Shown in pieces: positions 1-62,782 of a stretch of 64,000 nucleotides of DNA. Made by a program: the position numbers and the translations under genes. The notes beneath the pieces were generated by a model. The model was not told the DNA's origin. It saw only the letters and a list, made by a program, of their open reading frames with translations, and made no database searches. The DNA comes from Bacilli bacterium (GTDB lineage Bacteria > Bacillota_I > Bacilli_A > RFN20 > CAG-826): NCBI GenBank assembly GCA_051872335.1, contig JBJEDT010000025.1, forward strand, positions 51,365 through 115,364, in the 5' to 3' direction. How positions within the stretch are numbered: the first letter of the stretch is position 1; each line of letters starts with the position of its first letter.

Positions 1-471
1 GAAAATGTTATTAATGAAGCCATTGAAAAAGGAATAGCTGAAGATGATGCTCAACTATTATCATTTTTTTATACTGATGCTTCATTAATTGATAAATATG
101 TTGATGAGGGTGATTATCTATATGGTAAAGAATATGCTCTTTCAACAATTGAATCACTTTTAAAAAGTGATAGAGAAGCCGCTTTTTATATTCAAAGTGT
201 TGTCTCTAATAAATTAAAAACAAAAGAACAAGTTAGATTTTATTTAGATATACTTCAAGTACTATTTAGTGAAATGCTTAAAATCAAATCTAATGCTTCT
301 ACCATTATCACAAGTTATGATAAAATATTTAAAGAGTTATCTTCAAAAGTATCAAACATTGAAGATATACTTTCAGAGATTATGCTTACAAGAGGTCGTA
401 TTGACTTAAATCTATCTTTAAGTTCATTACTTGATCATATTGCTTTTACATTTATTAAAGGAGATGAATAA
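1..471 (+). CDS. holB: DNA polymerase III delta' subunit (HolB), C-terminal part; 5' end lies outside the window
   Basis: Frame 1 is open from position 1 with no stop until 469-471. Synteny holB-yaaT-rsmI is typical of Bacillota. The C-terminal helical domain is not diagnostic by itself. Confidence 0.4.
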   Translation, partial: ENVINEAIEKGIAEDDAQLLSFFYTDASLIDKYVDEGDYLYGKEYALSTIESLLKSDREAAFYIQSVVSNKLKTKEQVRFYLDILQVLFSEMLKIKSNASTIITSYDKIFKELSSKVSNIEDILSEIMLTRGRIDLNLSLSSLLDHIAFTFIKGDE

Positions 472-472
472 A

Positions 473-1306
473 ATGGCAGAAACAGTTTTAGATAATAACA
501 ATAATGAAAATCAATATTTTGTTGGTGTTAGATTTAATGAATCTGGTAAATCTTATTTTTTCTCAACAAATGAAAAACTTTTAAAGATTGCTGATAAAGT
601 TGTAGTCGAAACAGCTCGTGGTTTAGAAATTGGAATTGTTTCTATTTTACCTCAAGATATTTCAACCTATAATTTTAAATTAGAATTAAAACCTGTCTTA
701 CGTATTGCTACTGAAGAAGATATAGCAAAATTTGAAGAAAACATAAAACTTGCAAAAGAAAGTTTTATTACATGTTATAAAGAAGTAAATAATCTTGGAT
801 TAGATATGAATTTAACAAGTTGTGAATATACTCTTGATCGTACTAAAGTTATATTTTCATATCTTGCAAGTGAACGTGTCGATTTTAGAGAATTACTAAA
901 AGTTCTTGCTGCAAAACTTAAATGTCGTATTGAATTACGTCAAATTGGTACAAGAGATAAAGCAAAAATTATTGGAGGAATTGGAATTTGTGGCCTTCAA
1001 TTATGCTGCACTACTTTCCTAAATGAATTTGATGGTATCTCTATTAATCGTGCTAAAAATCAAATGTTATCACTTAATATTCCTAAACTATCAGGGCACT
1101 GTGGTAAATTAATTTGTTGTTTAAAATATGAAGATGATACATATACCAATCTTAAAAAAGACTTCCCTAACATTGGACATAAGTTCAATTATAATGGAGC
1201 TCAATATCGTGTATCATCAATGAATGTTATTACTCGTATTGTAAAGATTGAAACTCCTGATGATGTTCAATTTATTCCTTTAGATGAATTAAAGAAATAT
1301 CTCTAA
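473..1306 (+). CDS. yaaT: PSP1 C-terminal domain protein (YaaT/RicT family)
   Basis: Cys-rich PSP1-type sequence (…GICGLQLCCTTFL…GHCGKLICCLKYE…). RBS AAGGAG lies 9 nt upstream of the ATG at 473. The track start at 431 overlaps holB and is less likely. Confidence 0.7.
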   Translation: MAETVLDNNNNENQYFVGVRFNESGKSYFFSTNEKLLKIADKVVVETARGLEIGIVSILPQDISTYNFKLELKPVLRIATEEDIAKFEENIKLAKESFITCYKEVNNLGLDMNLTSCEYTLDRTKVIFSYLASERVDFRELLKVLAAKLKCRIELRQIGTRDKAKIIGGIGICGLQLCCTTFLNEFDGISINRAKNQMLSLNIPKLSGHCGKLICCLKYEDDTYTNLKKDFPNIGHKFNYNGAQYRVSSMNVITRIVKIETPDDVQFIPLDELKKYL

Positions 1307-1323
1307 AAGAAGGTAATTACAAT

Positions 1324-2175
1324 ATGAAACGCACACAAAATTTTGTAAATAATAAACCAACTTTATATTTGATAGCTACTCCTATTGGTAACTTAAGTGA
1401 GTTTACTCCTCGAGCAATTGAAGTATTAAAACAGGCTGATTATGTTGGTTGTGAAGATACTCGTAATAGTAAATCATTATTTGATCACTTTGGTATATCT
1501 TCCACATTAATTTCTTGTCATGAACATAATGAAAATGAAGCTAGTGAGCAATTAATATCTTATTTGTTAAATGGAAAAAACGTTTGCTATGTTTCCGATG
1601 CTGGTTATCCAGGAATTTCTGATCCAGGATCAAGACTAGTAAAAAAAGCTCTAGATAACGATATTAATGTTTCAGTTATTAATGGAAGTAGTGCTTTTTT
1701 AACTGCATTAGTTGCTTCAGGACTAGAAACAGATCATTTCTATTTTCATGGCTTTTTAGCGTCAAAAGAATCTCAAAGAGAAAATGAATTAAAAGAAATG
1801 ATACATAGAAAAGAAACATTAATCTTTTATGAATCTCCTCATCGAATTATGAAAACTTTAGTATCTATGCAAAAAATATTTGGTAATAGAAAAATATGTT
1901 TGTGTCGAGAATTAACTAAAAAATTTGAAGAATATATTAGAGGTACTCTTGATGAACTAGTTACCATTGATGAAAATACTTTAAAAGGTGAGATGGTAAT
2001 AATTGTTGAGGGCAATAAAGATGAAACTTCTTCTTTTGTAAGTGATGAAGATATTATGGCATATGTTAATTCATTAACGGAAGTTGGATTATCAACTAAA
2101 GATGCTATTAAAAATGCTGCTTCTACATTAAAAGTTAATAAGAACTATATTTATAAATTATTCCATACAAATTAA
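1324..2175 (+). CDS. rsmI: 16S rRNA (cytidine1402-2'-O)-methyltransferase RsmI
   Basis: N-terminus LYLIATPIGNLSEFTPRAIEVLKQADYVGCEDTR and the tetrapyrrole-methylase fold motifs match the RsmI family. Position after yaaT is conserved. Confidence 0.85.
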   Translation: MKRTQNFVNNKPTLYLIATPIGNLSEFTPRAIEVLKQADYVGCEDTRNSKSLFDHFGISSTLISCHEHNENEASEQLISYLLNGKNVCYVSDAGYPGISDPGSRLVKKALDNDINVSVINGSSAFLTALVASGLETDHFYFHGFLASKESQRENELKEMIHRKETLIFYESPHRIMKTLVSMQKIFGNRKICLCRELTKKFEEYIRGTLDELVTIDENTLKGEMVIIVEGNKDETSSFVSDEDIMAYVNSLTEVGLSTKDAIKNAASTLKVNKNYIYKLFHTN

Positions 2176-2182
2176 AAACTAT

Positions 2183-2224
2183 AGCAAAGAGTGTAAAATT
2201 TGATTTTCATTCTTTGCTTTTTTA
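2183..2224 (+). terminator. Hairpin (agcaaaga…tctttgct) followed by T6; putative rho-independent terminator of rsmI
   Basis: Inverted repeat with a long loop, followed by a T-tract, immediately after the rsmI stop. Confidence 0.35.
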
Positions 2225-2395
2225 AATTATACTTATTCAAGCAAAATTAATATTTTTAACATTATTACAATATTTATAAATTTTTCTATATTTTTAAATT
2301 ATTTAATTCCACATTTTATAGCAAGTCATCATTTTGCAAAATTAAATATTGTTTAAAAATGCGAAGTATATATAAAAAACTAAAGATAGAAAATA

Positions 2396-2620
2396 TGAAG
2401 ATTATATATAGAGAAAAGTATTTAAATCAATTAATAAATGTTAAAGATATTTCGGATAATAAAGTAATTACTGGAGTAAAAGAGCTGGAAAATCAAGGCT
2501 AATGGAAATGCACTATAATCATCTAACTTGTGAAAATAATAATATTATTAATATTAAACTGAATTTAAAAAAGTCTTCTAGTTTAACGGATGCTCAAAAG
2601 CTTATTATTTTATTATAAGT
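2396..2620 (+). pseudogene. Decayed N-terminal remnant of an AAA/DUF4143-type ATPase gene
   Basis: Short ORFs MKIIYREKYLNQLINVKDISDNKVITGV… and …IINIKLNLKKSSSLTDAQKLI… resemble the N-termini of the intact paralogs at 2684-4039 and 43035-44366 (…LIKVIIGIRRCGKS…, …IIKIKLDELSNS…). They are interrupted by stops before the Walker A motif. Confidence 0.3.
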
Positions 2621-2683
2621 TTTGTCTACACTCTTGCATGATACAAATGCCATTACTTTATGATTGATATATCTATTAAAAAA

Positions 2684-4039
2684 TTACTCATCCAATAAGA
2701 AAGCCATATAATATGGAAGTGTAGTTATTAAGCCATTTTGTCCTATATTATATTCACCAAATTTAATACATTTTTTAACATTATATTTATCTTTATTCGA
2801 TAATACTTCCATAGCAGATTTTGTATAACCAGTTGTAGATTTAACTTCAATAAGAGTAACTTCTCCATTATATTTAGTTATAAAATCTATCTCTAAACCT
2901 GAATCTTTATGGAAATAATATAATTTTTTTCCTTTTTTAGAAAAAGCATCAGCTATAATATTTTCAAATATTGCTCCTTTATAAACACCAAGATTTCCAG
3001 AAAGTATTTCTCCGGCCGTCCCTTTTTCAAGCATTGAAATGAATAATCCGCTATCTCTCATATATAATTTAAAAACGTTATCCATTTTATTGCCTTCCAA
3101 TGGTGTTTCTAAATTATGAAGATTAAAACATTGTGAAACAATTCCAGCATCTACTAGCCATTGAATAGCTTCTCTATATTCTGAGCTTCTGCCTTTTGTT
3201 TTAATTTTAGAATATTGGAATTTCTTATTTTCTTTTGCTAATTGGCTAGGAATCGAATCAAATACTTCCTCAATTCTTGCAAGAAGTAAATAATCAATTT
3301 CTTCATTTTCATTAGAGTCAAGATGCTTTCCAAAATCATCTTTATATTCTTCTAATATATCTCTTTGCTCTTCATAGACTCTATTCATATCACCTGTATT
3401 TAAGAAAGTGTTTACTGCTTCAGGTAATCCACCAACACAAATATATTCTTTAAAATATCTTATGATTGATTCATGAATTGCTTTTGAAATTGGGGTCATA
3501 TTATGTAAACTATCTTTTAAATATTGAATAATATCATTAGAAATTCCTTTTGCCCATAAAAATTCTTCAAAATCTAAAGGTTGCATATATATAATATGTT
3601 CTGATCCGGTAGGAACTCCCTTTCCCTTTTTTTTATTATATCCTTTAATACCAAGTAAAGAACCAGTTGCTATAACATCATATCTACCATCTTCAACAAA
3701 AGATTTTAGTGAAGCTCTAGCATTAGCACACTCTTGAATTTCGTCAAATATAATTAGAGTTTTATATGGATCTAATTTTATGTTTGGCATTTTAGCAGAA
3801 AGATCCATTAAAATTCTATCTACATTAAGATTTTCTTCAAACACAGATTTTAAATCATCACTATTTTTAAAATTAATATATATATAGTTACAGTAGTATT
3901 CCTTTGCAAATTGTTTAACAATATATGTTTTACCTATTTGTCTGAGTCCTTTAATAACAAGTGCTTTCTTTTTTGTTGTATTATTATTCTTCCACTCAAT
4001 CAATGTATTCATAATTTTACGCTTTAACATTTTAATCAC
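2684..4039 (-). CDS. AAA-family ATPase with DUF4143-like C-terminal domain
   Basis: Walker A GLRQIGKTY, Walker B IIFDEIQE, and the typical length and architecture of the widespread AAA+DUF4143 family. It is a paralog of 43035-44366. Confidence 0.7.
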   Translation of the reverse strand: MIKMLKRKIMNTLIEWKNNNTTKKKALVIKGLRQIGKTYIVKQFAKEYYCNYIYINFKNSDDLKSVFEENLNVDRILMDLSAKMPNIKLDPYKTLIIFDEIQECANARASLKSFVEDGRYDVIATGSLLGIKGYNKKKGKGVPTGSEHIIYMQPLDFEEFLWAKGISNDIIQYLKDSLHNMTPISKAIHESIIRYFKEYICVGGLPEAVNTFLNTGDMNRVYEEQRDILEEYKDDFGKHLDSNENEEIDYLLLARIEEVFDSIPSQLAKENKKFQYSKIKTKGRSSEYREAIQWLVDAGIVSQCFNLHNLETPLEGNKMDNVFKLYMRDSGLFISMLEKGTAGEILSGNLGVYKGAIFENIIADAFSKKGKKLYYFHKDSGLEIDFITKYNGEVTLIEVKSTTGYTKSAMEVLSNKDKYNVKKCIKFGEYNIGQNGLITTLPYYMAFLLDE

Positions 4040-4052
4040 CTAATTATAAAAT

Positions 4053-4138
4053 ACACTTTTTCAAGGGAAATTTCAATATTATTTTACACTTTTTCAAGGG
4101 AAATATTATCAACTTGTTACACTTTTTTCAAGGGAAAT
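4053..4138. repeat. Three direct copies of acac(t)5-6caagggaaat spaced 33 bp apart, in the leader/promoter region of the ATPase gene
   Basis: Copies at 4053-4071, 4086-4104 and 4119-4138, seen directly in the sequence. Confidence 0.7.
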
Positions 4139-4143
4139 ACCGT

Positions 4144-4530
4144 TTAAACACTACTACTTATAACATTAAATATATAAGTTAGAATATCTTTAAGTGATAA
4201 AAGATAACTATAAACGCATTCTTCATTATAATCATTTGCGTCCATAAATGAATTAAAAAGAGAAATACACTCATTAAGATGAAATAAAAATCTTTTTAAA
4301 TAACTTAATATTTCATTATTAATATATAAATAATTAATCTTATTAGAATAAAGAATTCTTATATTATTAAATAATCGAGTTGAAATATTAAGGTGTTTAA
4401 TAAAATCAACATAATTAACATGCGTTATTTGACATTTATTTAAAGTAACTCTTATATAGCGAAAATAATCACTAGCTGTTTTAATATACCAGCTCAGTTG
4501 TCTATCATCCTTTAAAGATAATCTAATCAT
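4144..4530 (-). CDS. Hypothetical protein (128 aa)
   Basis: ORF only; no recognisable motif. Confidence 0.35.
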   Translation of the reverse strand: MIRLSLKDDRQLSWYIKTASDYFRYIRVTLNKCQITHVNYVDFIKHLNISTRLFNNIRILYSNKINYLYINNEILSYLKRFLFHLNECISLFNSFMDANDYNEECVYSYLLSLKDILTYIFNVISSSV

Positions 4531-4553
4531 ACTATATCTTATGATTTAAAAAG

Positions 4554-5171
4554 TTATATATATGCTTTTAGCATATTAATAACTTCATTAACAGATTTAT
4601 TAATAAGACTAATATATGAAACATCATTTTCATTACATATATCACTTAATAATGAATCATAAGTATTTGATATATATGATTTAAATAATAATTCTTCAGG
4701 TCTTTCATATTCTTCACTATATAAAGGGCCTAATACTTTAATATTCTTATTATATTCTTCTTTTAAAACATAAATAATATGAGTTAAATTGTAATCAATT
4801 AACTCATATTGCTTTTTAATTCCTTCTTCATCTACATAGTTAACATTTGTAAAATCAATATAAGGTAATAATTCTTTATATGTGAAAAACAATAAAACAG
4901 GGTTTTTACTACGTTTTATTGTTTTTTTAATTTCTATCTTTTCATCATTATAATAAATAGAAGTATCATTCTCTATCATCTTATAAATATAATTAGAATG
5001 CATTGAAGATGATGTAAATAAATAATTTATATTATCTAAATTATTATTATCTAATTCAACCTTTAAAAAAGTAGGTATTTCTCCTAAAAGCAACAAATAA
5101 TTTCTAGAAGAACATCCACTACATAATAATAATATAAATATTAATATTAAACGAAAAGAATTATTCTTCAT
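4554..5171 (-). CDS. Putative lipoprotein
   Basis: N-terminal signal peptide ending LLLCSGCSS (lipobox-like Cys). Overlaps the murA stop by 11 bp. Confidence 0.5.
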   Translation of the reverse strand: MKNNSFRLILIFILLLCSGCSSRNYLLLLGEIPTFLKVELDNNNLDNINYLFTSSSMHSNYIYKMIENDTSIYYNDEKIEIKKTIKRSKNPVLLFFTYKELLPYIDFTNVNYVDEEGIKKQYELIDYNLTHIIYVLKEEYNKNIKVLGPLYSEEYERPEELLFKSYISNTYDSLLSDICNENDVSYISLINKSVNEVINMLKAYI

Positions 5172-6516
5172 AATAGATATCTGCTCCTATATTTTTTAGT
5201 TTATATAATATATTTTCATAACCTCTAAAAATATAATCAAAATCTTCAATTATAAACATACCTTTTTTAGATAGACATTTCATTAATAAACTAGCTGTAC
5301 ACCTTAAATCTTTACCTTGAACTTTAATAGCTACATTATCAAATTTTGATAATGTTCTCTCTTTTTCTTCTTTACTACTCACATTATCAATTTTTGATAA
5401 TGTTATATCTTCTATACCACTAGTGACATTATCAAATTTTGATAATGTGCTAGAGTTATTAATAATTAATAAATTACCATATTGAACAATATTAGTACCT
5501 ATTTTATTTAATCCTTCTACATGAGAAAATCGAGAAGCATAAATACGATCTTCAATTATAAACACATTATCAAAATCTGATAATGTGGCTGTTAATTGAG
5601 GCTGTAAATCTGTAGGAAAATAAGGGTATCTATCTGCAATCACATAAAGATTGTTCACATTATCAAATTTTGATAATGTGATACTATTCTTATAATATTT
5701 ATAATTTACTTTAAGTAAATTATATATAGTATGAAGTGATGATAAATATTTTAAAGGATAATGATTAATTTTTAAGTGATTATGATTCATTAGTGAAAGT
5801 AAAGAATAAGTTCCAGCTTCGATACGATCATAGATGTTATTGAATACTATTTCTTTATTAAATTCTCCTTTAATTACTGAATAAGATGTAGTATTTAATT
5901 TATTAATATTAACTCCTAGAACTTTTAAAAATTTAATAAAAACTGTAACTTCTGGTTCTAAAGCAATATTTTCTATAATAGTTGTTTTAGATAATGTTGA
6001 AGCATATAGTAAAACATTAATAGATGCTCCAAAAGAATGATGAACATCAACTCGTGATGATTTAACAATATTACTAGTGAAAGTTAAAATATTATTTTCT
6101 TCTTTAATATCTACACCCATTTCTTTAAAAGCATCAATATGATAATTAATAGGTCTTTTTTCAAAGTTACAACCACCTGGATAAGTAATTACACATTTCT
6201 TAAATAAACCTAAAAACAACCCAATAAAATAATAAGATGCTCTAAAAGTAGATATCTTTGACATTATCAAATTTTGATAATGTGGTATAGATGAATTGAT
6301 AATTATTGTATCTTTGTTTTTGATATATCTAACACCCACATTATCATAAATTGATAATGTGGTATTAATATCTTTAATATCTGGTATGTTTTTTAAAGTG
6401 ACTTTTTGATTATTTAATAATGCTCCAAATAAAAGACATAAAGCTAAATTTTTACTACCAGAAACATTTATATTACCATGTAAAGTTTTTCCACCATTTA
6501 TATATAATTGACCCAT
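5161..6516 (-). CDS. murA: UDP-N-acetylglucosamine 1-carboxyvinyltransferase (MurA) carrying in-frame palindromic insertions
   Basis: Collinear with E. coli MurA: the N-terminus (NGGK…SGSKN), the catalytic-Cys loop PGGCNFEKRP, FPTDLQPQ, RF.HV and the C-terminal RGYE are all present. The protein is 451 aa against about 420 aa typical, and contains five TLSKFDNV-type octapeptides plus HYQNLIM and TTLSIYDNV inserts. Confidence 0.8.
   Translation of the reverse strand: MGQLYINGGKTLHGNINVSGSKNLALCLLFGALLNNQKVTLKNIPDIKDINTTLSIYDNVGVRYIKNKDTIIINSSIPHYQNLIMSKISTFRASYYFIGLFLGLFKKCVITYPGGCNFEKRPINYHIDAFKEMGVDIKEENNILTFTSNIVKSSRVDVHHSFGASINVLLYASTLSKTTIIENIALEPEVTVFIKFLKVLGVNINKLNTTSYSVIKGEFNKEIVFNNIYDRIEAGTYSLLSLMNHNHLKINHYPLKYLSSLHTIYNLLKVNYKYYKNSITLSKFDNVNNLYVIADRYPYFPTDLQPQLTATLSDFDNVFIIEDRIYASRFSHVEGLNKIGTNIVQYGNLLIINNSSTLSKFDNVTSGIEDITLSKIDNVSSKEEKERTLSKFDNVAIKVQGKDLRCTASLLMKCLSKKGMFIIEDFDYIFRGYENILYKLKNIGADIYYEE
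5334..5679. repeat. Five copies of the 23-bp palindromic element acattatcaaa(a/t)tttgataatgt inside murA
   Basis: Copies at 5334-5356, 5381-5403, 5426-5448, 5564-5586 and 5657-5679. Each is read in-frame; four are translated as TLSKFDNV and the copy at 5564-5586 as TLSDFDNV. Confidence 0.85.
6261..6360. repeat. Two further copies of the same palindromic element inside murA, read in other frames or variant
   Basis: 6261-6283 encodes PHYQNLIMSK (a different frame). 6338-6360 (variant acattatcataaattgataatgt) encodes TTLSIYDNV. Confidence 0.8.
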
Positions 6517-6656
6517 TATTTATGTCCTTACTAAATATATGAATATTGTTAAATTTTTATTAAAATTTAAAAAAATTAAAAAATAACCTTAAATTTATAA
6601 AATAAATTTAATAAATATTGAGAATTTTTCGTATAAATATTGTAAACAACTTTAAT

Positions 6657-6684
6657 TTGACAACTTTTTAGTATAGAATATACT
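6657..6684 (+). promoter_or_regulatory. Sigma-A-like promoter TTGACA-16-TATACT for the plus-strand TasA-like gene pair
   Basis: Exact -35 hexamer and a near-consensus -10, about 45 bp upstream of the RBS/ATG at 6727. Confidence 0.45.
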
Positions 6685-6726
6685 AAAGTAGTGTCGAATT
6701 TGATAGTTACTTAGAAAGGATTAATT

Positions 6727-7701
6727 ATGGAAGAAAAAGGCTCAAAGAAAAAAAGCGCAATATTCTCAATGCTATTTTCTTTACTATGTGTCTTTTTAGT
6801 AACTATACCTACTTTAACATTTGCATGGTTTAAACAATATATGGATGTAACTAGTCAAACAATTACCATTACTTCTGGTGAATCTGTTGCTTACATTGAA
6901 ATTGAGATTTATACCTATCAAAATGATACAATTAATGGTCCATTAGCATATCATACATCTTTAGATTATGATTTAGATGTTAATTGTACTTCTAACCCTG
7001 ATGAAACTGGTACTGTAAATGTTACTTTTGGTAGTATTGCTGTAAACGAAGCTGATTTAACTAAAGGATATGGTGGTCTAGATAATCCTGACTTCTTTAA
7101 TCCAGATTGTTTACCAGAATTTATGATTGAATTTAGAATTATTAAGGAGTTATTCTCTTCATATGTAAAAAGTTCTGTAACTGTTATAACTAATACAGGC
7201 ACTAATTCTTTCTACGATACAAGTGGTAATGAATCTTCTTCTACATTAACAACACCATTTTTATTTAGACAAAAAATATTTACAAATAACGCTACAGAAG
7301 TTATTGGTTCATGTATTCAAAATAATACAAGTTCTAATACTGATGGTGACAATACAAACGTAGAAAGCATGCGTAACGTTTTGCCAACTGCAATGCCAGC
7401 AATTAGCAGTGAAACAAATTTATTTAATGACCTAGATTCACTTTATAATCAAGGTGCACCCGTTGAAGATGGAGTAAGTTATCCTAAACAACTATATGTT
7501 CCTCAATTTAATAAAAAGAAACCTGGTAGTGCAGACGATGTTGCTTATAGTAAAGCTATTATATATGATGTCTGTCTTGATCCAGCATTAATATTATTTA
7601 CAATGCAAGAGACAAATAAAGGCTCAATCTCAAAAATTATGTCATTTAATTTATCATTACAATTTTCATTTGAATTATCTAACGACCCATTTAGGTCATA
7701 A
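6727..7701 (+). CDS. TasA/camelysin-family secreted protein (SipW-cognate signal peptide)
   Basis: N-terminus …VTIPTLTFAWFKQ… parallels B. subtilis TasA …LVGGGTWAAFND…. The C-terminal LSLQFSFELSN resembles the TasA C-terminal QFSFEATQWNG. Confidence 0.65.
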   Translation: MEEKGSKKKSAIFSMLFSLLCVFLVTIPTLTFAWFKQYMDVTSQTITITSGESVAYIEIEIYTYQNDTINGPLAYHTSLDYDLDVNCTSNPDETGTVNVTFGSIAVNEADLTKGYGGLDNPDFFNPDCLPEFMIEFRIIKELFSSYVKSSVTVITNTGTNSFYDTSGNESSSTLTTPFLFRQKIFTNNATEVIGSCIQNNTSSNTDGDNTNVESMRNVLPTAMPAISSETNLFNDLDSLYNQGAPVEDGVSYPKQLYVPQFNKKKPGSADDVAYSKAIIYDVCLDPALILFTMQETNKGSISKIMSFNLSLQFSFELSNDPFRS

Positions 7702-7745
7702 AATGTTTATATAAAAATCATTAACTAAGAAAGGAGGTTTAATAA

Positions 7746-10181
7746 ATGAAAAAAAATACAAATTCAAAAATCTTATTTGCTTTATCATTAATGTTTGCTA
7801 CTTCAGCTTTAGGATTAATTTCTTTTGGGACAATGTGTGCTTTCCAAAATAAAGAACAACAATCTTTTGAATATCAAACAGATATTAAACCTTTAACTTC
7901 TTATTTTGATGGTGGAATAGGAACATTATCTAACCCATACATAATTAGTAGCGAAGAAACTTTTATAAACTTTCAAAAGCTAGTACAACTTGGATGTTTT
8001 ACATATAATACATACTTTAATTTAGGTGCAGATATTACTTTTAGTGATGATACTATTCTAGAACCTATCGGAACCGAAAACTGCCCATTCAATTCTCAAT
8101 TTGATGGTATGGGATATAAATTATCAAACATTAAAGTATCTTCTGTTAACCATGAGGATGTAGGTGTATTTGGGTATGTTGGTTCAGGTTCATATATTAA
8201 AAATTTAATTCTAGATACACCTTCAATTACTTCAACAGGTCCCTCAACAAAGGTTGATAACCCACTTGAAGGAATTGTACCTTCTAGTTCTATTACTACA
8301 CCAACATATACAACTACAAGTGTAACGATGTCTAGTCGTGTTGTTGAAGGGACAGATTCAAATAATTACACAGTATACTTCCGTTCTGCTAATAAAGGTA
8401 TATTAACTGATGATGGTGTTTTACAAACTGCTAATATTACAAATAATAAAAAGTTTGCAATTCATGTAGATGCTATTATTACAACCTCTATTCTAGTTAA
8501 TAATGAACCTATGGTTGTTACTTATGTAGCTGATAGATTCGCTGTGTATATAGAAAATAAAGCTATACTTGAAACTGAAGGCGTTGTAAGCTTATTTGAT
8601 AGGTCCGATGATGGTGATGGAACTTATACAACAAAAGATCCTCATTATTATGAGGATCAAAATGGTGCAAGAGTCTTAGATGATGTTGTATATTTAGGAC
8701 TATTTGTTGGGCATATTGATGGAGAAGCTTCTTATATTGGTGTATATAATGGCACTTTAACAGCTAATACCAGAGAAACTATATCACATTCATCAATAAT
8801 TGGAAAACATAAAGATGATACCTTACTTAATTCTCTTGATAATGATTACTACTATCAAGACATAAATTTTTCAGAAATGATTACTGCCGTCCCTTCATTG
8901 GGTGATACAGGATACGTAAATACTCAAAATTTTAGTGCTTCTACCGGGGTTGGTCATGACACTGATTTTACAACGATTTTTAATAACACAAACACGAATC
9001 TTGAAGATATTGGAATTGAAATTCCAAATGCTTTTAGAATCTACAATTCTTTTGGGGTTTCCCCATTAGATTCAATTAATACACGTCAATTAGATGAAGA
9101 AACAGGCGAAATCTCTACAGAAATAGAGCCTATGGAAGGTATATATCTAAAAGAGGATATTGAAGAATCCATTACATGGAAAACAGTTCAATATAGATTT
9201 TATATTGGTAATTATAGCACAATGCACACAGTTAAAAATTATGTCCTAAATAATACACTTTGGTTATGGGCAATGCAGGAATATTTAGCAAATGGAGATT
9301 CTACAATAAGCGATATTTTAGGTAATTTATTTGATGGAGAAACAACTGTCTACTTAACTTTAAAGATTTCTTATTCAGTTTCAAATTGTGAAGCGGCTAA
9401 AGATACCATATTTAAATTATATTCTGCTGGTTTCTCAACAAAGAGTGTTCCAAACGACACTTATAACAACAAATTGAGCGCAGATAGCATCGACCAATTT
9501 GGACATGCTAATAATTCTAATATTACAAAAAAAACTATTGTAACAGGAACTGATGAATCTGGTAATGATATTACAACGGAAGAATGGCACTTTACAGATA
9601 TGGAAAGTAGTATTGCTCCTGTTGAATATATTGATAGTGATGGCAATATACAAACAAAAGATTTTGATCCATTAATATGTAGTCAAAACACGAGTTATAG
9701 TAATGTTATTCAGTCAAAAACAATATCTGTTGTAGCTAATACAAGTTCATCTAGTAGTTTCTTTAATAGATCAACTTACGCTCCTCTTTTTGGATTAGGT
9801 CTAGAAGGAATTAATGGGACAAATGCACAACTTGATATTTATCGTATAGAAATTCTTATTTCTCACGATCAAGGTAATTTTTCATATTCATTAGATAAAG
9901 TTGATTTCTTATACGATTTAAATGCTACATATGATAGCAGTGCTGCTACTTGGACAGGATGGGCAAAAAAAGAGTCTGGTGTTAAAATTTACTTTATCCT
10001 ACAAGATCTTGAAGATGGAGATACAAATACTAACTTAAATACAGGTGTTGTAATTACATATACACGTTCTAGTGGATATGGTTATAGAGTAACTGCTACA
10101 TATACTGTATTAGGTGATGCATCATATGCCCCTACAAATACAAGTGGTGCTCAAACAGCAACAATTACTGATGGAACATAA
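7746..10181 (+). CDS. Large secreted protein (811 aa), possible beta-helix/GLUG-like adhesin or fibre-associated protein
   Basis: Signal peptide …ISFGTMCAFQN (possibly SipW-type). N-terminal pattern SNPYIIS…YFNLGADITF…PIG…FDGMGYKLSNIKV…GVFGYVGSGSYIKNLIL is typical of parallel beta-helix surface proteins. S/T/N-rich throughout. Confidence 0.45.
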   Translation: MKKNTNSKILFALSLMFATSALGLISFGTMCAFQNKEQQSFEYQTDIKPLTSYFDGGIGTLSNPYIISSEETFINFQKLVQLGCFTYNTYFNLGADITFSDDTILEPIGTENCPFNSQFDGMGYKLSNIKVSSVNHEDVGVFGYVGSGSYIKNLILDTPSITSTGPSTKVDNPLEGIVPSSSITTPTYTTTSVTMSSRVVEGTDSNNYTVYFRSANKGILTDDGVLQTANITNNKKFAIHVDAIITTSILVNNEPMVVTYVADRFAVYIENKAILETEGVVSLFDRSDDGDGTYTTKDPHYYEDQNGARVLDDVVYLGLFVGHIDGEASYIGVYNGTLTANTRETISHSSIIGKHKDDTLLNSLDNDYYYQDINFSEMITAVPSLGDTGYVNTQNFSASTGVGHDTDFTTIFNNTNTNLEDIGIEIPNAFRIYNSFGVSPLDSINTRQLDEETGEISTEIEPMEGIYLKEDIEESITWKTVQYRFYIGNYSTMHTVKNYVLNNTLWLWAMQEYLANGDSTISDILGNLFDGETTVYLTLKISYSVSNCEAAKDTIFKLYSAGFSTKSVPNDTYNNKLSADSIDQFGHANNSNITKKTIVTGTDESGNDITTEEWHFTDMESSIAPVEYIDSDGNIQTKDFDPLICSQNTSYSNVIQSKTISVVANTSSSSSFFNRSTYAPLFGLGLEGINGTNAQLDIYRIEILISHDQGNFSYSLDKVDFLYDLNATYDSSAATWTGWAKKESGVKIYFILQDLEDGDTNTNLNTGVVITYTRSSGYGYRVTATYTVLGDASYAPTNTSGAQTATITDGT

Positions 10182-10207
10182 AAATAGATTAATTTTATAA
10201 ACATATT

Positions 10208-10275
10208 AAAAGAGCCTTACCTAAATAATTCTTAATAAAAATAAGAATAATTTAGGTAAGGCTCTTTTTATTTAT
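10208..10275. terminator. Bidirectional rho-independent terminator between convergent genes (about 23-bp stem)
   Basis: aaagagccttacctaaataattc / gaataatttaggtaaggctcttt inverted repeat. It is followed by TTATTTAT on the + strand and by a T-rich run on the - strand. Confidence 0.7.
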
Positions 10276-10278
10276 ATA

Positions 10279-11187
10279 TTAACTAGCAAACAATGATAAT
10301 GCAGTAACTGAAAATGATAATAATTGATAACAGTTAGATGAACCATTTTCTTTATCTTTATAATAATATATATCATTACCAGAACGTCGAGAATAAGTAT
10401 AATATGTATCACTAGCATTTGAGAATTCTATTGTAAAGAATACAACAATTGTTTTTCCACTTAATGACGTTCCGGAAACATAAGATAAGTCAACTCCATC
10501 AAAGTTACTTCCATCTCCTGATTCATTAAATACGTCAGTTAATGAAGTATCTCTATCACTTAATTCATAACCATTTAAGAAATTTAATGCTGAAGTATTC
10601 ATAGTTGCATTATCTTCTTTTAGCATAGCTCCTGAATAAATATTAATAGCTTCTGATAAATATATACCACCTAATACTTCGTCAGTATCTTTATCTACTT
10701 TATACATAGTAAGGACATCTTCCTCAACTAGAGTAGCAGTATAATTTGTTGAAGTATATTTTGTAATAGAAAGACCTGCACGAGATATTTGAGAAGATGA
10801 ACTTATAGTTAATTCAAAAGCATAAGTATATCGTGTATCAGGGAATATATCAGTAATATTCCACAATTCAGATGCAGACTCACTCATTTCAATAAAATCA
10901 GATGAATATGTACAAGTACTTATCTCAGCATAATCTTGATAACCAGTATATTTAGTTATTCCGTCATCATCTGTAGTATAGTTTCCTGAATAATACATTA
11001 ATTTATAGTTTTCAACCGATTCATCAATAGTAATATTAGAATTTCCTAAATCTGCATTTCGATTAACAGTAAACCAAGCGAATGTTGCTGTTGCAGCTGC
11101 TCCAAAAGAAATGAGTAAAACAAAAGCACTAAGTAAAACTTGTTTTAATTTAAACTTATTTAGTTCAAGTTTCATACTTTTGTCCAT
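10279..11187 (-). CDS. TasA/camelysin-family secreted protein (SipW-cognate signal peptide)
   Basis: N-terminus …GAAATATFAWFTVNRN…. The C-terminal region is S/T-rich. Confidence 0.6.
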   Translation of the reverse strand: MDKSMKLELNKFKLKQVLLSAFVLLISFGAAATATFAWFTVNRNADLGNSNITIDESVENYKLMYYSGNYTTDDDGITKYTGYQDYAEISTCTYSSDFIEMSESASELWNITDIFPDTRYTYAFELTISSSSQISRAGLSITKYTSTNYTATLVEEDVLTMYKVDKDTDEVLGGIYLSEAINIYSGAMLKEDNATMNTSALNFLNGYELSDRDTSLTDVFNESGDGSNFDGVDLSYVSGTSLSGKTIVVFFTIEFSNASDTYYTYSRRSGNDIYYYKDKENGSSNCYQLLSFSVTALSLFAS

Positions 11188-11222
11188 CTCCTTTCTTTAT
11201 GTTGCTACAAATTAACTTAATT

Positions 11223-11948
11223 TTATTCAAATGGTTTATTAAAGTCTTGGAATAATAAGTTCAATAATTGTCCGATTTCAGGAGCTTGTTCAACCCCAAC
11301 ACGAACTCTTGATAATAATTGGTGATTGTTACCTACTTCATATGAACAAGCCTTAAAAACAACTAAAGGTATATCATATAAATAACATGCTGCAGCAAAG
11401 CCAGCAGCTTCGGTATCAACTGCAAGAACATTATTAATTTTACTAAAATGTTCTTGAATAGTAACTTTAACATCATCTAAATTAGAATGGAATTTATTTG
11501 ATGAAAGCAAAACACCTTGAACGATACGTTTGTTCTTATTCATACCATTTAAAGCATGAATAGTTTGAACAGTATCAAAATCTGAAGTATAGAACATTGG
11601 AAGTTCAGGTATTTGACCATAACGATATTTACCTAAAGCAAGTAGATCAACATCCATTGCATAAACTCTATCTGCAATAAATAAATCACCTTGGTCAAGG
11701 TTTGGTGAAATTGAAGAAACTGTTCCAATATTTACTACTAAATATGGTTTATATTTTTCAATTAATAATGCTGTAATCATAGCAGCCATTTCTTGTCCAT
11801 ATCCAGTCATGGCACATGCAATTTCTTTACCACCGAAAATTCCAATATAAACATCATAACGATTAGCTATGACTTCTACACGAGGGTCAATAATTCTTTT
11901 TTGAATATACTCGACATCATCTAAACGAGCACCAACAATTAAAATCAT
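11223..11948 (-). CDS. mtnN: MTA/SAH nucleosidase (MtnN/Pfs) family protein, possibly catalytically divergent
   Basis: Collinear with E. coli MtnN (ILIVGARLDDV vs IGIIGAMEEEV; AVDTEAAGFAAACYLYDIPLVVF vs [23 protein letters not shown]). The residue aligned by eye to the catalytic Asp197 (SD) is SY here. Confidence 0.6.
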   Translation of the reverse strand: MILIVGARLDDVEYIQKRIIDPRVEVIANRYDVYIGIFGGKEIACAMTGYGQEMAAMITALLIEKYKPYLVVNIGTVSSISPNLDQGDLFIADRVYAMDVDLLALGKYRYGQIPELPMFYTSDFDTVQTIHALNGMNKNKRIVQGVLLSSNKFHSNLDDVKVTIQEHFSKINNVLAVDTEAAGFAAACYLYDIPLVVFKACSYEVGNNHQLLSRVRVGVEQAPEIGQLLNLLFQDFNKPFE

Positions 11949-11960
11949 TAGTCATCCCTC

Positions 11961-14262: not shown

Positions 14263-14282
14263 CAGTTTCTCCTTTCCTCATT

Positions 14283-16412: not shown

Positions 16413-16435
16413 TTTATAATCCTCCTTTCTTGAAA

Positions 16436-16498
16436 TTCATAATATATATAATAATGAAAATATAAATATATATAATATAAATAATATATATATAATAA
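16436..16498. repeat. (TA)n / ATA-rich simple-sequence tract in the McrB-like/partner intergenic region
   Basis: aatatatataataatgaaaatataaatatatataatataaataatatatatataataatt, seen directly. Confidence 0.7.
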
Positions 16499-18034: not shown

Positions 18035-18081
18035 ATTTAACCCTCCTAAATTTCAAGTACTCAAATTAGAAAAAATGATAA

Positions 18082-18864: not shown

Positions 18865-18901
18865 TTACTTCCTCGTTCAAATAATAGTTAAGTTTTGTTT
18901 T

Positions 18902-20197: not shown

Positions 20198-20244
20198 AGT
20201 GTAGTATCGTTAAAATATTATCTACCTAATAAATGAATTTTTTA

Positions 20245-23011: not shown

Positions 23012-23326
23012 AGTTATCTCCTTGTTTTTTTAATAACGAAAAAAAGTGTAAATGTTCTCCTATTTTTTAATTTTTTACATCAACGACTTCGTATTGATCT
23101 CTCAATACACCATTAGAAGTGAAATCATTAACGTAACAATTAAGAAACAATTGATACATCAACATAGTATTTGGAATAAATCCTATTCAGTTGTAACACA
23201 ATATTAATGCCCTAAATCAATATCATGCTAGATTGATAGATTATTATAAATAATCTTTCAACCTATAAATAATATAACATAATAATTTTATAAGAGTATT
23301 ATTTTTACACAATTTTTTTAAGAAAA

Positions 23327-48156: not shown

Positions 48157-50268
48157 TTAGTCTTCCATATTTTCTTCATATAAGACAACTTTATTTTTAC
48201 CATCTCTTTTTGCTTTATACAAAGCTTTATCAGCATGGAGGTATAAATCATCGTATTTACGTAAATAATGATTAGAAATACAAATTCCTATAGAACATGT
48301 AATATTATAATTTTGGAAAGAAATCTGTTTTACTTTTTCACATATTCTATTAGCTTCCTTAAGAACACCTTCCTCATTTACAACGTTAATGAATAATGCG
48401 ACAAATTCATCTCCACCTAAACGAGCAACAATATGAGGAGGTTTAATTTCTTCTTTTAAGACATTAGCAATTTTACGTAACAAGATATCACCTTGAATAT
48501 GTCCATGAATATCATTTACATTTTTAAAGTCATCTATATCAATAATAAAGAATGCACACTTTCCCTTTTCATTTAATAAAAGATTGATGTGACTTTTAGC
48601 AAATATCTCAAATGAACTACGATTGTTAAGCTCTGTTAATGAGTCTTTATTAGCTTTCTCAAAAATCTCAATTTCTTCTTTTTTCTTTTTATCAATATCA
48701 TTAATAATTACAAAAATATGTACATGATGATCATAAGGATTAACTATTATTGATAATCTAAACAATGCATAATGATATGTTTTATGAGCAACTAATATAC
48801 GAGCTTCAATAGAACGAGTTACATCTTTTTGAATAAAATCAGAAGTTTTAAGATCATTAACAGCATTTAATATCAGTTCTTTATCATCAGGGTGAATTAA
48901 TCCACCAAAGAAATTATTTAGAGATACAAAAGAATTAATTGAAGTTTGGCAAGACTCAAATAAAGGACCAGATTTGGAAATTACTTCACGTTCATCAAGG
49001 TCAATTTCAAATGAGGCAAGTGAATTACTTGTTAAAACTTTTCTTAATTTAATTTCATTGTCAAAATATCGTTTAGCTTTAACAACTTGCGTAGCATCCT
49101 TGCCAACAAAAATAGCACAAATAGGATTCTTATATTCGTCTTTGATGATTTGATACTGTAATTCAGTCCATTTCTCAAGTTCACCTTTATATTTATAAAG
49201 TACAACACCATAGTCTTCAACTTGATTCATTGCATTATAGAAAAACTTTTTTATGTCTTTCAAGTAATCTTCATCTATTTTTTCAAAATTCAAAGTACAT
49301 TCATTTCTATCGTTTACTTGAAGTATTACAAAATTACCATTAAGAATTGATAATTTAGAATCAAAATAGTTATATTCAGCTAAATATACTTTAGCTAATT
49401 CACAACTAATTTTAAATTTATCATTGGCAAACTTAAGTTTTTGTTCAGTTTGTTTAATATTTGTTGTATCTAGAAATAAAAATTGATAAATAGTATTTCC
49501 GGAAACATCTTGTGTTTCATTAACATAACCAACAAGCCATGTTAATGTATTTTTATTATTTAAAAATGATAATTCAAAATTATCGAATGGATTATGTTCT
49601 TCTTGAGTATGAGTCTTTATAATAGATTCTTTTAAAATTTTAATTTTATCACTTGTGAAAAAATTATTTAGTGAGTTATTTTTATTATTTAAAAATTCCC
49701 TACTACTTCTAAAACCAAAAGCATGTGCAGCATATGAGTTAGCATACATTGGAATTAAATCTTCTAAATTATTAAATTGAATTAATCCACACATCAAAGA
49801 AGATGCAGCTTTAACAAAGACTTCTTGACTTTGACTAATAAGATTTTCTTGCTCATGTAACTTTAATTCTTGATTATGTTCAATTGTTTTATCGTAATAT
49901 ACAGATTGAAAATAAAGTTTTCCATTATATGCAACCACTTTACTTATATCGTGTAAATATAAGACACGTCCACTTTTGGAATTCAATTTATATTTAAGTA
50001 ATTTAATATCACCAATTTTTACTTTATTACCATCTAAACTTCTTAAGTTCTTCAAATCTTGTTCTTCATAAAAATCAGTAGCACGATATTCATGCTCTTC
50101 AAAATCTTTACGTGTAATACCTAATAAATCAAGCATTAAATCATTAACGTAAACAAAACGAGGATTTGATTCTAAAGTTGATATTGAAAAAGGTGTTTGC
50201 AAATTATCCAAAACCTCTCTTAAATTATTTATTTCTTCAAACACTGATTGTGTATTTTCATCACTCAT
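48157..50268 (-). CDS. PAS-domain sensor diguanylate cyclase (GGDEF)
   Basis: C-terminal LTELNNRSSFE…FIIDIDDFKNVND…RLGGDEFVALF (intact GGDEF). N-terminal PAS-like repeats. Confidence 0.75.
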   Translation of the reverse strand: MSDENTQSVFEEINNLREVLDNLQTPFSISTLESNPRFVYVNDLMLDLLGITRKDFEEHEYRATDFYEEQDLKNLRSLDGNKVKIGDIKLLKYKLNSKSGRVLYLHDISKVVAYNGKLYFQSVYYDKTIEHNQELKLHEQENLISQSQEVFVKAASSLMCGLIQFNNLEDLIPMYANSYAAHAFGFRSSREFLNNKNNSLNNFFTSDKIKILKESIIKTHTQEEHNPFDNFELSFLNNKNTLTWLVGYVNETQDVSGNTIYQFLFLDTTNIKQTEQKLKFANDKFKISCELAKVYLAEYNYFDSKLSILNGNFVILQVNDRNECTLNFEKIDEDYLKDIKKFFYNAMNQVEDYGVVLYKYKGELEKWTELQYQIIKDEYKNPICAIFVGKDATQVVKAKRYFDNEIKLRKVLTSNSLASFEIDLDEREVISKSGPLFESCQTSINSFVSLNNFFGGLIHPDDKELILNAVNDLKTSDFIQKDVTRSIEARILVAHKTYHYALFRLSIIVNPYDHHVHIFVIINDIDKKKKEEIEIFEKANKDSLTELNNRSSFEIFAKSHINLLLNEKGKCAFFIIDIDDFKNVNDIHGHIQGDILLRKIANVLKEEIKPPHIVARLGGDEFVALFINVVNEEGVLKEANRICEKVKQISFQNYNITCSIGICISNHYLRKYDDLYLHADKALYKAKRDGKNKVVLYEENMED

Positions 50269-60644: not shown

Positions 60645-61721
60645 TTATTCATTATTTAGTTTATCAAATTCATTTATAAGATTATTTGCATATTCTTTAA
60701 ATCCTAAACTATTAGGGTGTAAATACCCATCAAAATACAAATCATAATTATGAGGAACTAAGTCTTTACCATTGATGATCATTACATTAGAATAATTTTT
60801 ACATATATTTTTTAAGTCTTTATGAATTAAAGAAAATTTTCCAACCTTTGTATCCTCATTTTTATCAGCTCTCCAAATTGGAGTTATTACATAGATTGGA
60901 GTGTTTTCAAACTTCGCAGTTAACTTATCAAAATATTTAGTGGCATTAATAATAAATTTTTCTTCACTTGAGCATAAGTTCCAGTCATTTGTTCCATAAG
61001 CAACAGTTATATAATCTGGTTTTATAAAAGAAGAAATATCTTTTATACTATGATGATTAAAATAATATCCTGCAACTCCTTGATTTAATATTCGAACATG
61101 TTTTTGTCTTTCAAAAAAAGTAATATAGTTTTTTGAAGGTCCAGAACTATAACAACCTTGAGTAATCGAATCTCCTAAAGCTAAAACTGTTTGATACTCA
61201 TTATCATTTTTAAAATACTTCTTATTAGTTTTTACATATTTTATACCTGTTTCTATATATAAAGGTAAGTATATTTCTACAAGTACTTTTTCTTTATTCT
61301 TATTTTTAAACTTAACGACAAATTTACTCTTGGTAAAACCTTGTTTACGTTTGACTAATTTATCATTAACTCTTATATCAAATCCATCAAAAAATTTTTC
61401 TTTACGCTTTGATTTGTTTTTAATACCATCCTTATTTTCTTTAGAAAATTCAAAAAGTGTTTTAAAACCTTCTTCTCTTAAAACACTAGAAACACCTTTA
61501 AAAATATGACGATGTTGAAACTTAATCTTTATTTTATTACCTGTTGTATAAAAAGAAATAATAACACCTGATGTTCCATGAGACATTAATTTAAAAAACG
61601 CTTTTTTATTATATTCACTAAATTGTTTTTCACTAAAACGATAAAAATAATAATAACCTTTTTTAGTTTTCTCATAAAAAACATAATTTGAAGTGAAATC
61701 AACAAGAGGAATTTTTTTCAT
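60645..61721 (-). CDS. SGNH/GDSL-type hydrolase domain protein
   Basis: LALGDSITQG (block I), AYGTNDW, and DGYLHP (block V). The start was moved to the ATG at 61721 (RBS AAAGGTGA); the track start at 61829 gives a junk-like extension that overlaps the divergent gene. Confidence 0.6.
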   Translation of the reverse strand: MKKIPLVDFTSNYVFYEKTKKGYYYFYRFSEKQFSEYNKKAFFKLMSHGTSGVIISFYTTGNKIKIKFQHRHIFKGVSSVLREEGFKTLFEFSKENKDGIKNKSKRKEKFFDGFDIRVNDKLVKRKQGFTKSKFVVKFKNKNKEKVLVEIYLPLYIETGIKYVKTNKKYFKNDNEYQTVLALGDSITQGCYSSGPSKNYITFFERQKHVRILNQGVAGYYFNHHSIKDISSFIKPDYITVAYGTNDWNLCSSEEKFIINATKYFDKLTAKFENTPIYVITPIWRADKNEDTKVGKFSLIHKDLKNICKNYSNVMIINGKDLVPHNYDLYFDGYLHPNSLGFKEYANNLINEFDKLNNE

Positions 61722-61789
61722 AATGTCACCTTTTCTTTTACTAATCTTTATCTTTATAATATAATATTTTCTATAAAGAAGGTGTAAAA

Positions 61790-62782
61790 ATGAAAAAAAA
61801 TAAACTACAAGTAAATAAAAAAGACACATCTGATCAAGAAATTAATGTAATATCTAAAGCTTCACGTCGTGCGTGGACAACCTTTGGAATTATTGCTTTT
61901 ATATTAATGACTATCTTCTTAGTAGCATGTATTATTGATATCTATCAATTTTTCTATTCTCTTAATGAAATTGCAGGTTATGTATCATTAGGAGTGATTA
62001 TCTTAGTTTTACTAATCTTTGTTGTTCGACCTATAGTTGTTGCTTTGTCTTCTCCTTGTTTTACTTTAGATGTTGTAGAAGAAGGTAACTTAAAAAAGCT
62101 TAATAAAAAGAATTATCGTAAACTTAAAAAAGTTGCTCAAAATTTACTTAATTCAAAAAATGTTTCTGATGAAAGCAAAAATTTAATAAAAAAATCATTA
62201 GGAAGTCATAAAAAATTAAATGAAACTTTAAAAAATATTTATGATAAAGAAATTACTAAAGATATTAATAAATTAATTAATCAAAAAGCAAGTGAAGTAT
62301 TACTTGCAACAGCTATTTCTCAAAATAGTAAATTTGATGCTTTATCAGTAATGTTAGTTAATATTCGTCTTATTATGCAAATAGTTGTTAGATGTGGTTA
62401 TCATCCATCTTATTCTCAACTTTCAAAACTTGTTATTAAAGTATTAAGAAATTCTTTAATTGCCTATACTGTTCAATCATTACATTTAGAAGATATTGTT
62501 GTTACAGGAATTAATAAGCTTGTTAAAGGAACTTTAACTGCAATTCCTGCTTTAAATGAAATCGCTAAAGGTTTAGTCCAAGGATCTGCAAATGCTTTAT
62601 TAACATTACGTATCGGTATTTTAACTCGTAAATATTTATATGAAGAATATAATATTCAACAATATCTACAAAACAAAGAAGAAATCAATCAAACAATTCT
62701 TGAAGATGCTCTTAATGAATCAAATAATAATATTGATTTAATCATTAATGAGTGCAAAAAAAAGAAAGTTGCTAATGCTTAA
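61790..62782 (+). CDS. Membrane protein, possibly DUF697/YcjF-like
   Basis: Two TM helices near the N-terminus and a long amphipathic helical C-domain. The family call is tentative. Confidence 0.35.
   Translation: MKKNKLQVNKKDTSDQEINVISKASRRAWTTFGIIAFILMTIFLVACIIDIYQFFYSLNEIAGYVSLGVIILVLLIFVVRPIVVALSSPCFTLDVVEEGNLKKLNKKNYRKLKKVAQNLLNSKNVSDESKNLIKKSLGSHKKLNETLKNIYDKEITKDINKLINQKASEVLLATAISQNSKFDALSVMLVNIRLIMQIVVRCGYHPSYSQLSKLVIKVLRNSLIAYTVQSLHLEDIVVTGINKLVKGTLTAIPALNEIAKGLVQGSANALLTLRIGILTRKYLYEEYNIQQYLQNKEEINQTILEDALNESNNNIDLIINECKKKKVANA

Follow-up and report, generated by a model that had tools for sequence, protein, structure and literature searches.

The Rickettsia palindromic elements (RPEs) of Ogata et al. 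2000 are reportedly about 100-150 bp long, occur in tens of copies over unrelated genes, RNA genes and spacers, always add residues to the proteins in which they lie, and decay. PARCELs are likewise protein-coding repeats with dyad symmetry at the DNA level, in this case tandem domains of 25 residues (75 nt) described in Mollicutes and other low-GC microbes; they match DUF285/TIGR02167, reside in open reading frames (ORFs) for surface proteins or of unknown function, show an imperfect, statistical symmetry and spread by horizontal gene transfer. Short dyads are also known from intragenic and centromere-like arrays, i.e. chromosomal parS sites within genes, sopC of the F plasmid and the RacA ram sites of Bacillus subtilis. 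Here we describe the murA gene of an uncultured 'Bacilli bacterium' (roughly 26% GC, from pig gut and other gut metagenomes), which carries seven copies of a 23-bp palindrome. The gene was analysed within a 64,000-nt stretch of contig JBJEDT010000025.1 (GenBank assembly GCA_051872335.1, positions 51,365 to 115,364), referred to below as the window. We tentatively regard the seven copies as an array of dyad-symmetric cis-sites for a sequence-specific dimeric protein, which would be dual-coded within a functional, divergent murA; this reading is possible, and we prefer it, although it falls somewhat short of probable.

Like an RPE, the murA repeat is palindromic DNA lying in-frame within an intact coding gene, whose product apparently still functions. 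It differs in its length (23 bp, not a long hairpin of about 100-150 bp), in its restriction to one gene instead of dispersal over many, in that four of the seven copies do not lengthen the host protein, and in the purifying selection acting on its arms. Unlike PARCELs, the repeat is 8 residues long, dispersed and perfectly palindromic, and scans of the murA protein with Pfam and NCBIfam returned only EPSP_synthase, murA and aroA models, DUF285/TIGR02167 not being among them. The parS, sopC and ram arrays are similar in that short dyads coexist with coding sequence, are conserved at the nucleotide level and may be clustered at a spacing of ~43-48 bp. The murA sites are set apart from them by their confinement to one stretch of a single gene, by a cognate protein that is putative only, and by a sequence with no relation to that of parS (with TGTTNCACGTGNAACA, the window's best matches carry 2 mismatches and are located elsewhere).

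An original prediction, made from the letters of the window alone, had pointed to seven near-identical palindromes inside the murA ORF. A scan of the window with the pattern ACATTATCAAAWTTTGATAATGT, allowing <=3 mismatches, returned exactly seven copies of ACATTATCA-N5-TGATAATGT, all of them within a 1.05-kb stretch of that ORF, and moved one predicted start from 5334 to 5333 (the full set being 5333, 5381, 5426, 5564, 5657, 6261 and 6338). Only 0.01 copies are expected by chance, and 0/100 dinucleotide shuffles attained seven. All 7 copies agree in their 9-bp arms, ACATTATCA and TGATAATGT, the differences being restricted to the central 5 bp, and in four copies the whole 23-mer is identical; the strictly conserved core is C-ATTATCA-N5-TGATAAT-G. 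The gene and its palindromes, numbered in gene order, are as follows:

5161..6516, minus strand: murA ORF, 451 aa, divergent UDP-GlcNAc enolpyruvyl transferase (Pfam, PDB and model evidence)
6338..6360: palindrome copy 1, centre ATTTA on the gene strand, read as TLSIYDNV (aa 53-60)
6261..6283: palindrome copy 2, second frame, read as PHYQNLIMS (aa 78-86)
5657..5679: palindrome copy 3, read as TLSKFDNV (aa 280-287)
5564..5586: palindrome copy 4, read as TLSDFDNV (aa 311-318)
5426..5448: palindrome copy 5, read as TLSKFDNV (aa 357-364)
5381..5403: palindrome copy 6, read as TLSKIDNV (aa 372-379)
5333..5355: palindrome copy 7, read as TLSKFDNV (aa 388-395)
5335..5448, minus strand: loop insertion specific to the lineage (aa 357-394), with predicted disorder, holding copies 5-7

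One reading frame serves six copies (TLSKFDNV three times, TLSIYDNV, TLSDFDNV and TLSKIDNV once each), and a second frame serves copy 2, in which the arms spell H-Y and I-M. The third frame, as can be read directly from the sequence, is blocked by TGA/TAA on either strand, and both usable frames are therefore in use. Copies 5-7 are spaced 45 and 48 bp apart.

The encoded protein belongs to a tight family (P0001-P0007, 83-90% identity), which has >40 members among ENA, Logan and NCBI metagenome-assembled genomes (MAGs) and whose next relatives are found only at 40% identity. Every copy is orthologous in a sister species (87% DNA identity), and the family retains all copies at the same positions, save for one unit in the 435-aa variants P0003, P0004 and P0005. 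These variants lack copy 6 as the result of a natural 16-aa deletion that spans palindrome 6 to palindrome 7 and has its breakpoints within palindromes; copy number thus changes by palindrome-to-palindrome deletion, a point in favour of the initial interpretation. It had also been considered that the motif might be a conserved native segment of MurA in this lineage, or else a product of faulty assembly. The former holds by half, as the copies are conserved within the lineage but are absent, together with the loop insertion, from the relatives at 40% identity, which do possess murA and its two downstream genes. An assembly artefact is ruled out, because the same gene with the same copies recurs in >40 independently assembled sequences.

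Constraint on the repeat itself is seen in a codon alignment of five strains of two species, in which the window strain shares ~87% DNA identity with the other four. Only 3/126 columns vary in the arms, compared with 209/1189 (17.6%) in the remainder of murA (Fisher p=3.7e-7), and at third codon positions the respective values are 0/42 and 133/400 (33%; p=1.6e-7). The purifying selection seen in the arms does not extend to the 5-bp centre, where 9/35 columns (26%) are variable, or to the 6-nt flanks on either side (21/84, 25%). All 3 arm changes fall at the outermost positions (1, 2 or 23): T23 to C in copy 2 and A1 to T in copy 7 of the sister species, and C2 to U (in the mRNA) in copy 5 of strain sequence L062, where a G-U pair is retained. 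The second-frame reading of copy 2 is kept in all strains. Codon usage alone would yield ACA-TTA-TCA together with GAT-AAT with a probability of ~0.07 per copy, and synonymous variation (ACA/ACT) is indeed seen at an STLSKT site of this gene that is not palindromic. Concerted evolution, gene conversion and hairpin-templated correction were considered as sources of the arm identity and are disfavoured, because the centres are copy-specific (orthologous ones are more alike than paralogous ones) and no mirrored, symmetric arm changes occur among the compared strains. The simplest reading of this two-species comparison is selection on the arm sequence itself. The two frames, the identical codons and the frozen synonymous sites also agree with the view, already implicit in the original prediction, that the repeat is an entity of DNA and not a peptide motif.

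The host gene appears to be in good order. Its product matches the Pfam family EPSP_synthase (PF00275, 4.9e-44) and MurA chains of the PDB down to 5.6e-56 (Aquifex MurA 2yvw), scores 289-292 bits with the NCBIfam murA models, i.e. slightly under their curated cut-offs, and has an AlphaFold (AF2) model with a pLDDT of 87 and TM values of 0.85-0.93 against solved MurA structures. The catalytic and substrate-binding residues of MurA are, in Escherichia coli numbering, K22, R91, the C115 loop, R120, D305, D369/R371 and R397. In a 54-sequence alignment that includes the protein described here, K22, R92, G114-G115-C116, R121-P122, D303, D403-L404-R405 and R431 are invariant, and the ORF is collinear with MurA, as had been predicted along with the retention of the catalytic-Cys loop. 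Both the sequence and fold of the MurA family and its catalytic and substrate residues are thus present. Variation among strains amounts to 10.9%, 8.4% and 33% of sites at codon positions 1, 2 and 3, respectively, which indicates that the protein is under purifying selection. Judging from these comparisons and from the structural model, the gene apparently encodes a divergent, intact and functional MurA. An undecaprenyl-diphosphatase gene is also present in the window and suggests a walled cell.

The protein is 451 aa long, compared with 412-426 aa in most homologues, and the placement of the copies was judged against 49 distant homologues of about 35-43% identity. The alignment columns of copies 1-4 are wholly free of gaps, and native residues are replaced there one for one, with no change in protein length; most copies are therefore not insertions, unlike those of a transposing element. 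Copy 1 occupies the end of a helix (pLDDT ~96; LIKILNRLN in the distant homologues), copy 2 a loop (IKYxDLLND), copy 3 a strand and the adjoining loop (T-I-S-K-F/T-N), and copy 4 the end of a helix plus a loop, immediately behind the conserved motif FPTDLQ (LLSQINGT). The native sequence at sites 3 and 4 (T-I-S-K and L-L-S) is already similar to the left arm. Copy 3 is possibly the founder site, because the sequence of the homologues resembles the palindrome there and the outgroup DNA matches it in 15/23 bases. The remaining three copies are associated with a loop insertion of roughly 33 aa, which is gapped in 49/49 distant homologues and whose residues (aa 357-394) form the only part of the model with a pLDDT <50; copy 5 opens this insertion, copy 6 lies within it and copy 7 closes it.

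The locus has two properties of an operator array, namely symmetric half-sites with a free spacer and conservation beyond that imposed by coding. Where a dimer reads the major groove, the characteristic mark is a conserved stem sequence around a free centre, whereas the recognition of RNA hairpins usually reads the loop. We favour a homodimeric DNA-binding protein as the reader of the sites, because the arms are conserved and the centre and flanks are free over ~21 bp. The seven palindromes would then be cis-acting recognition sites with a 9-5-9 dyad, bound on double-stranded DNA by this putative protein and written into the murA coding sequence by dual coding, with T-L-S/D-N-V spelled in one frame and H-Y/I-M in the second. 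Four sites would overwrite tolerant segments of the native fold, and three would be housed in the disordered loop insertion, where units may be gained and lost via recombination between copies. An occupied array might act on murA itself, as a roadblock or looping control of transcription of the murA operon; alternatively, it may serve to anchor a nucleoprotein complex, in the manner of intragenic parS or centromere arrays.

The 7-1-7 box of the B. subtilis Fur protein is TGATAATnATTATCA. A precedent for AT-rich dyads is provided by the winged-helix repressor LugJ, which binds ACATTATCATTATCAATAATGATAATG, i.e. the same CATTATCA half-sites at another spacing (PMC11980582). The murA palindrome shares with the LugJ (PMC11980582) and Fur operators the letters of the half-sites (CATTATCA/TGATAATG), an AT-rich dyad and a footprint of ~21 bp. 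It differs from the Fur box in its geometry (7-5-7 with everted heptamers, against 7-1-7), from the LugJ site in its spacer (N5 against N10), and from both in that the sites are intragenic and not at a promoter. The window shows no clear enrichment of canonical Fur 7-1-7 boxes (43 vs 30±5.7). A link to Fur or PerR through the heptamer TGATAAT is only a lead and not evidence, as the spacing or polarity is wrong. A literature search on the arm sequences and on murA palindromes retrieved only the LugJ operator and general papers on RPEs, transposable elements of the miniature inverted-repeat type (MITEs) and PARCELs.

Two observations concern the Fur family itself. A PerR-like regulator of this family (129 aa) is encoded next to a PTPS/QueD-like gene (L184 1931-2917), ~12 kb to the left of murA and outside the window. 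A near-perfect Fur-type 7-1-7 box, TGATACTCATTATCA (1 mismatch), lies at window positions 61192-61206, inside a GDSL-lipase ORF (60645..61829).

Several points weigh against the proposed array of protein-binding sites. No candidate binding protein was found, the expected box of the PerR-like gene product being of ill-fitting geometry, and no promoter within the ~85 kb examined carries a copy. Operators in natural sets tend to be degenerate; the perfection of all seven sites suggests an origin by copy and paste, which the proposal leaves without explanation. A hairpin of RNA or single-stranded DNA selected for its stability would likewise conserve the arms and free the loop, the effective phylogenetic depth of the comparison amounts to two species plus within-species variants, and we know of no reason for such an array to reside in murA.

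As a rule, short cis-sites that share their sequence with a protein code occur singly and are degenerate. The situation in murA contrasts with this, since seven perfect copies, in two frames of an essential and constrained enzyme, have stayed constant while the surrounding synonymous sites turned over. Should the binding protein exist, the gene would offer an unusually clean case of natural dual coding, and the step that commits an uncultured gut lineage to peptidoglycan synthesis, the first such step, would gain a new handle of a regulatory or organisational kind. A bolder version, in which the cis-sites belong to an undescribed system with the coding sequence of this essential peptidoglycan gene as its platform (either a centromere- or operator-like array by which a dimeric protein senses or throttles murA, or recombination sites that reversibly invert or delete part of it), seems to us improbable. 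If the recombinational variant of this idea were true, wall synthesis would be switched off in a low-GC lineage neighbouring the wall-less Mollicutes.

Among the other explanations, the one that survives best concerns RNA hairpins. Each copy would form a stem-loop of 9-11 bp in the murA mRNA, and the set would modulate stability, RNase cleavage or ribosome transit. The predicted folding energies of the copies with 5-nt flanks range from -8.3 to -14.8 kcal/mol (z -3.9 to -5.9 vs shuffles), the variable centre coincides with the loop and the conserved arms with the stem, and the sole internal arm change (C2 to U in copy 5 of L062) preserves pairing as a G-U pair. Since each copy makes a good RNA hairpin, a role at the mRNA level stays a serious rival. 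Selection for pairing alone should, however, allow differing stems with compensatory or wobble changes, whereas the sequence is frozen; perfect two-fold symmetry of the DNA is unnecessary for an RNA hairpin, the destabilisation of one hairpin out of seven should matter very little, and the window contains no match to any Rfam family. We consider this explanation unlikely, albeit worth keeping in mind.

The spread of a selfish or neutral repeat, as first suggested by analogy with RPEs, has to be judged from the distribution of the palindrome. The absence of further copies from the 64-kb window, noted at the outset, was upheld by the scan described above and by a relaxed scan (<=4 arm mismatches, spacers of 3-8), which outside murA gave only background comparable to Markov controls (12-20 hits). 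No copy was found in ~21 kb of additional flank (~85 kb in all) or outside murA in L001-L004, L060 and L184, and no other palindrome family was detected in the window, two relatives or the outgroup. In the MAG SUG2458, the one relative in GTDB, the sole match lies in a 2.3-kb contig (L052) that breaks off inside murA, and the remainder of SUG2458 is thus without an exact copy. Exact scans for ACATTATCA-N5-TGATAATGT revealed no multi-copy locus but only single-copy stretches, 171 in number, in GTDB representative genomes (55), IMG/VR (19) and metagenomes (97). The translated GTDB and viral single-copy matches are all unrelated, mostly representing a TLSxxDNV peptide in other proteins (the metagenome matches were counted only). 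A phmmer search with aa 350-400, which cover the insert, against 1.84 billion representatives recovered only the family itself and an unrelated low-complexity protein (P0121).

In the case of a selfish or neutral element of the RPE or MITE type, templated repair or short-patch gene conversion would account for its spread inside murA, the protein merely tolerating the copies. Such an origin would explain the identical 18-nt arms, which point to copying rather than independent point mutation, the occupation of both usable frames (with a stop-bearing third frame, only tolerated insertions would survive) and the polymorphic copy number in the loop, with breakpoints inside palindromes. It is difficult to reconcile with the lack of copies outside murA in the window, the flanks and SUG2458 and of any multi-copy locus in the GTDB, IMG/VR and metagenome scans, with the four copies that add no length, and with the age of the copies, all of which predate the species split while none has decayed. 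Moreover, the arms are far more conserved than synonymous sites, and the centre and flanks are not. The orthology of all copies, together with the constraint on the arms, fits a maintained cis-site better than a spreading parasite. The original interpretation is upheld only in part, and we regard the colonisation of murA by a selfish element as rather improbable.

The structure of the repeat gives a similar picture. The MITE hallmarks (terminal inverted repeats, target duplication, a length of 50-500 bp and a transposase) were not found: the 23-bp unit has neither terminal repeats nor target duplications, the flanks of the seven copies share nothing, and a Pfam scan of window ORFs >=150 aa and of the 128-aa murA neighbour identified no transposase or RAYT, the transposase associated with repetitive extragenic palindromes (REPs). 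REPs and bacterial interspersed mosaic elements (BIMEs) are extragenic hairpin palindromes of 20-40 nt with a 5' GTAG, present in hundreds of copies per genome and linked to a RAYT gene. The likeness is limited to a short hairpin-forming palindrome, the extragenic location, the hundreds of copies, GTAG and RAYT not being seen at murA. In practical terms, the analogy with RPEs is no ground for classing repeats confined to one gene as mobile elements.

It is very doubtful that the palindromes are core sites of a site-specific recombinase. In this scheme, an 8-7-8 layout like that of tyrosine-recombinase cores, which the copies do fit, would support programmed inversion or deletion and yield a phase-variable cell-wall enzyme. 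The copies, being palindromes, are inverted as well as direct repeats of one another, the 16-aa deletion variants break within palindromes, and one contig (L182, k141) contains an inversion junction, at which copy 3 runs into copy 6 in reverse complement (98% identity over 286 nt), and predicts a truncated MurA of 313 aa. On the other side, no recombinase is found among the Pfam-annotated genes of the locus, and strand exchange would be blocked by the unlike centres of the copies. A fold-back at copy 3 is present in three independent contigs, where the tail repeats the flank before it in reverse complement at 84/87 nt (protein tail DNVILFL and a stop), a pattern typical of assembler chimeras. 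The inversion and fold-back contigs are probably assembler or library chimeras, because the assemblers used start from k-mers shorter than palindromes of 23-27 bp; the same artefact probably accounts for L182, given that the three contigs show a simple fold-back at copy 3.

Public short-read contigs of murA are scrambled precisely at the palindromes (L183 929-1038; L182 1171-1456; proteins P0007, P0137, P0142 and P0006), and several MAG contigs, e.g. L052, end within the gene. Perfect palindromes of 23-27 bp thus break or scramble short-read assemblies of murA, which is of practical importance.

A short linear peptide motif, TLSxxDNV, selected for a partner protein or protease adaptor, with palindromy arising from AT-rich codons, is most unlikely as well: although this peptide in AT-rich genomes automatically gives ACATTATCA..TGATAATGT, accounts for most translated single-copy database matches (in unrelated proteins) and is read in the same frame in 6/7 copies, copy 2 is retained in the other frame as HYQNLIM, synonymous positions of the arms are invariable (0/42, vs 33% elsewhere) and copies 1-4 lie in differing structural contexts (helix end, loop and strand).

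An unrelated protein of ~300 aa, conserved across Bacillota, carries IPILxDTLSxYDNVxVI and hence the same 18 specified bases once (in L008, L009, L012, L015-L018, L021, L022, L031, L037, L041, L047 and L055); it illustrates that AT-rich codons for T-L-S are by their nature the reverse complement of those for D-N-V.

A superficial similarity to a CRISPR array is also apparent, as copies 5-7 resemble three 23-bp palindromic repeats with spacers of 22 and 25 bp. Unlike in such an array, the repeats are translated inside an intact, conserved ORF and comprise three units only, and no Cas family was present among the Pfam matches of the scanned window ORFs, a leader not having been searched for.

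The immediate surroundings of murA contain the following features:

6670..6697, minus strand: promoter-like site upstream of murA (TCGACA, 16 nt, TATACT), a weak candidate matching 10/12 positions in a consensus scan
4144..5171, minus strand: two co-oriented, palindrome-free genes downstream of murA, in a conserved operon context

The downstream genes encode a putative lipoprotein of 205 aa, which overlaps the end of murA, and a protein of 128 aa. They were considered as palindrome-specific partners and ruled out, because their orthologues (33% and 24% identity) also follow murA in the palindrome-free outgroup L063. A promoter and terminator scan flagged certain palindrome copies merely through their AT-rich context.

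Gene orientation and GC skew flip from positive to negative around murA (window 1-10000; L184 5513-11703): a dnaX-ybaB-recR-tmk-holB-PSP1-rsmI cluster lies to the left of murA on the plus strand, and the region of 10-64 kb is on the minus strand. This may reflect a convergent, terminus-like pattern or mere coding-strand composition. The block at 6727-25247 contains about a dozen large ORFs, mostly without Pfam matches and several apparently encoding secreted proteins, and separates murA from MgtE and pseudouridine-synthase genes, which are located near murA in the outgroup. Other products encoded in the window include five GGDEF/EAL proteins and two DUF4143 AAA ATPases. At 48112-48136, on the minus strand, a perfect hairpin (ATACGTTATC-N5-GATAACGTAT) followed by a T-run forms an ordinary terminator after a GGDEF gene (48157..50268); its arms resemble the murA palindrome only superficially. 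Finally, two adjacent ORFs of 84 and 130 aa (29476-30124), which start with MKK..IDESGDFG, look like a split gene of the DUF3800 type, lying in a low-GC stretch (28.7-30.7 kb) otherwise without ORFs.

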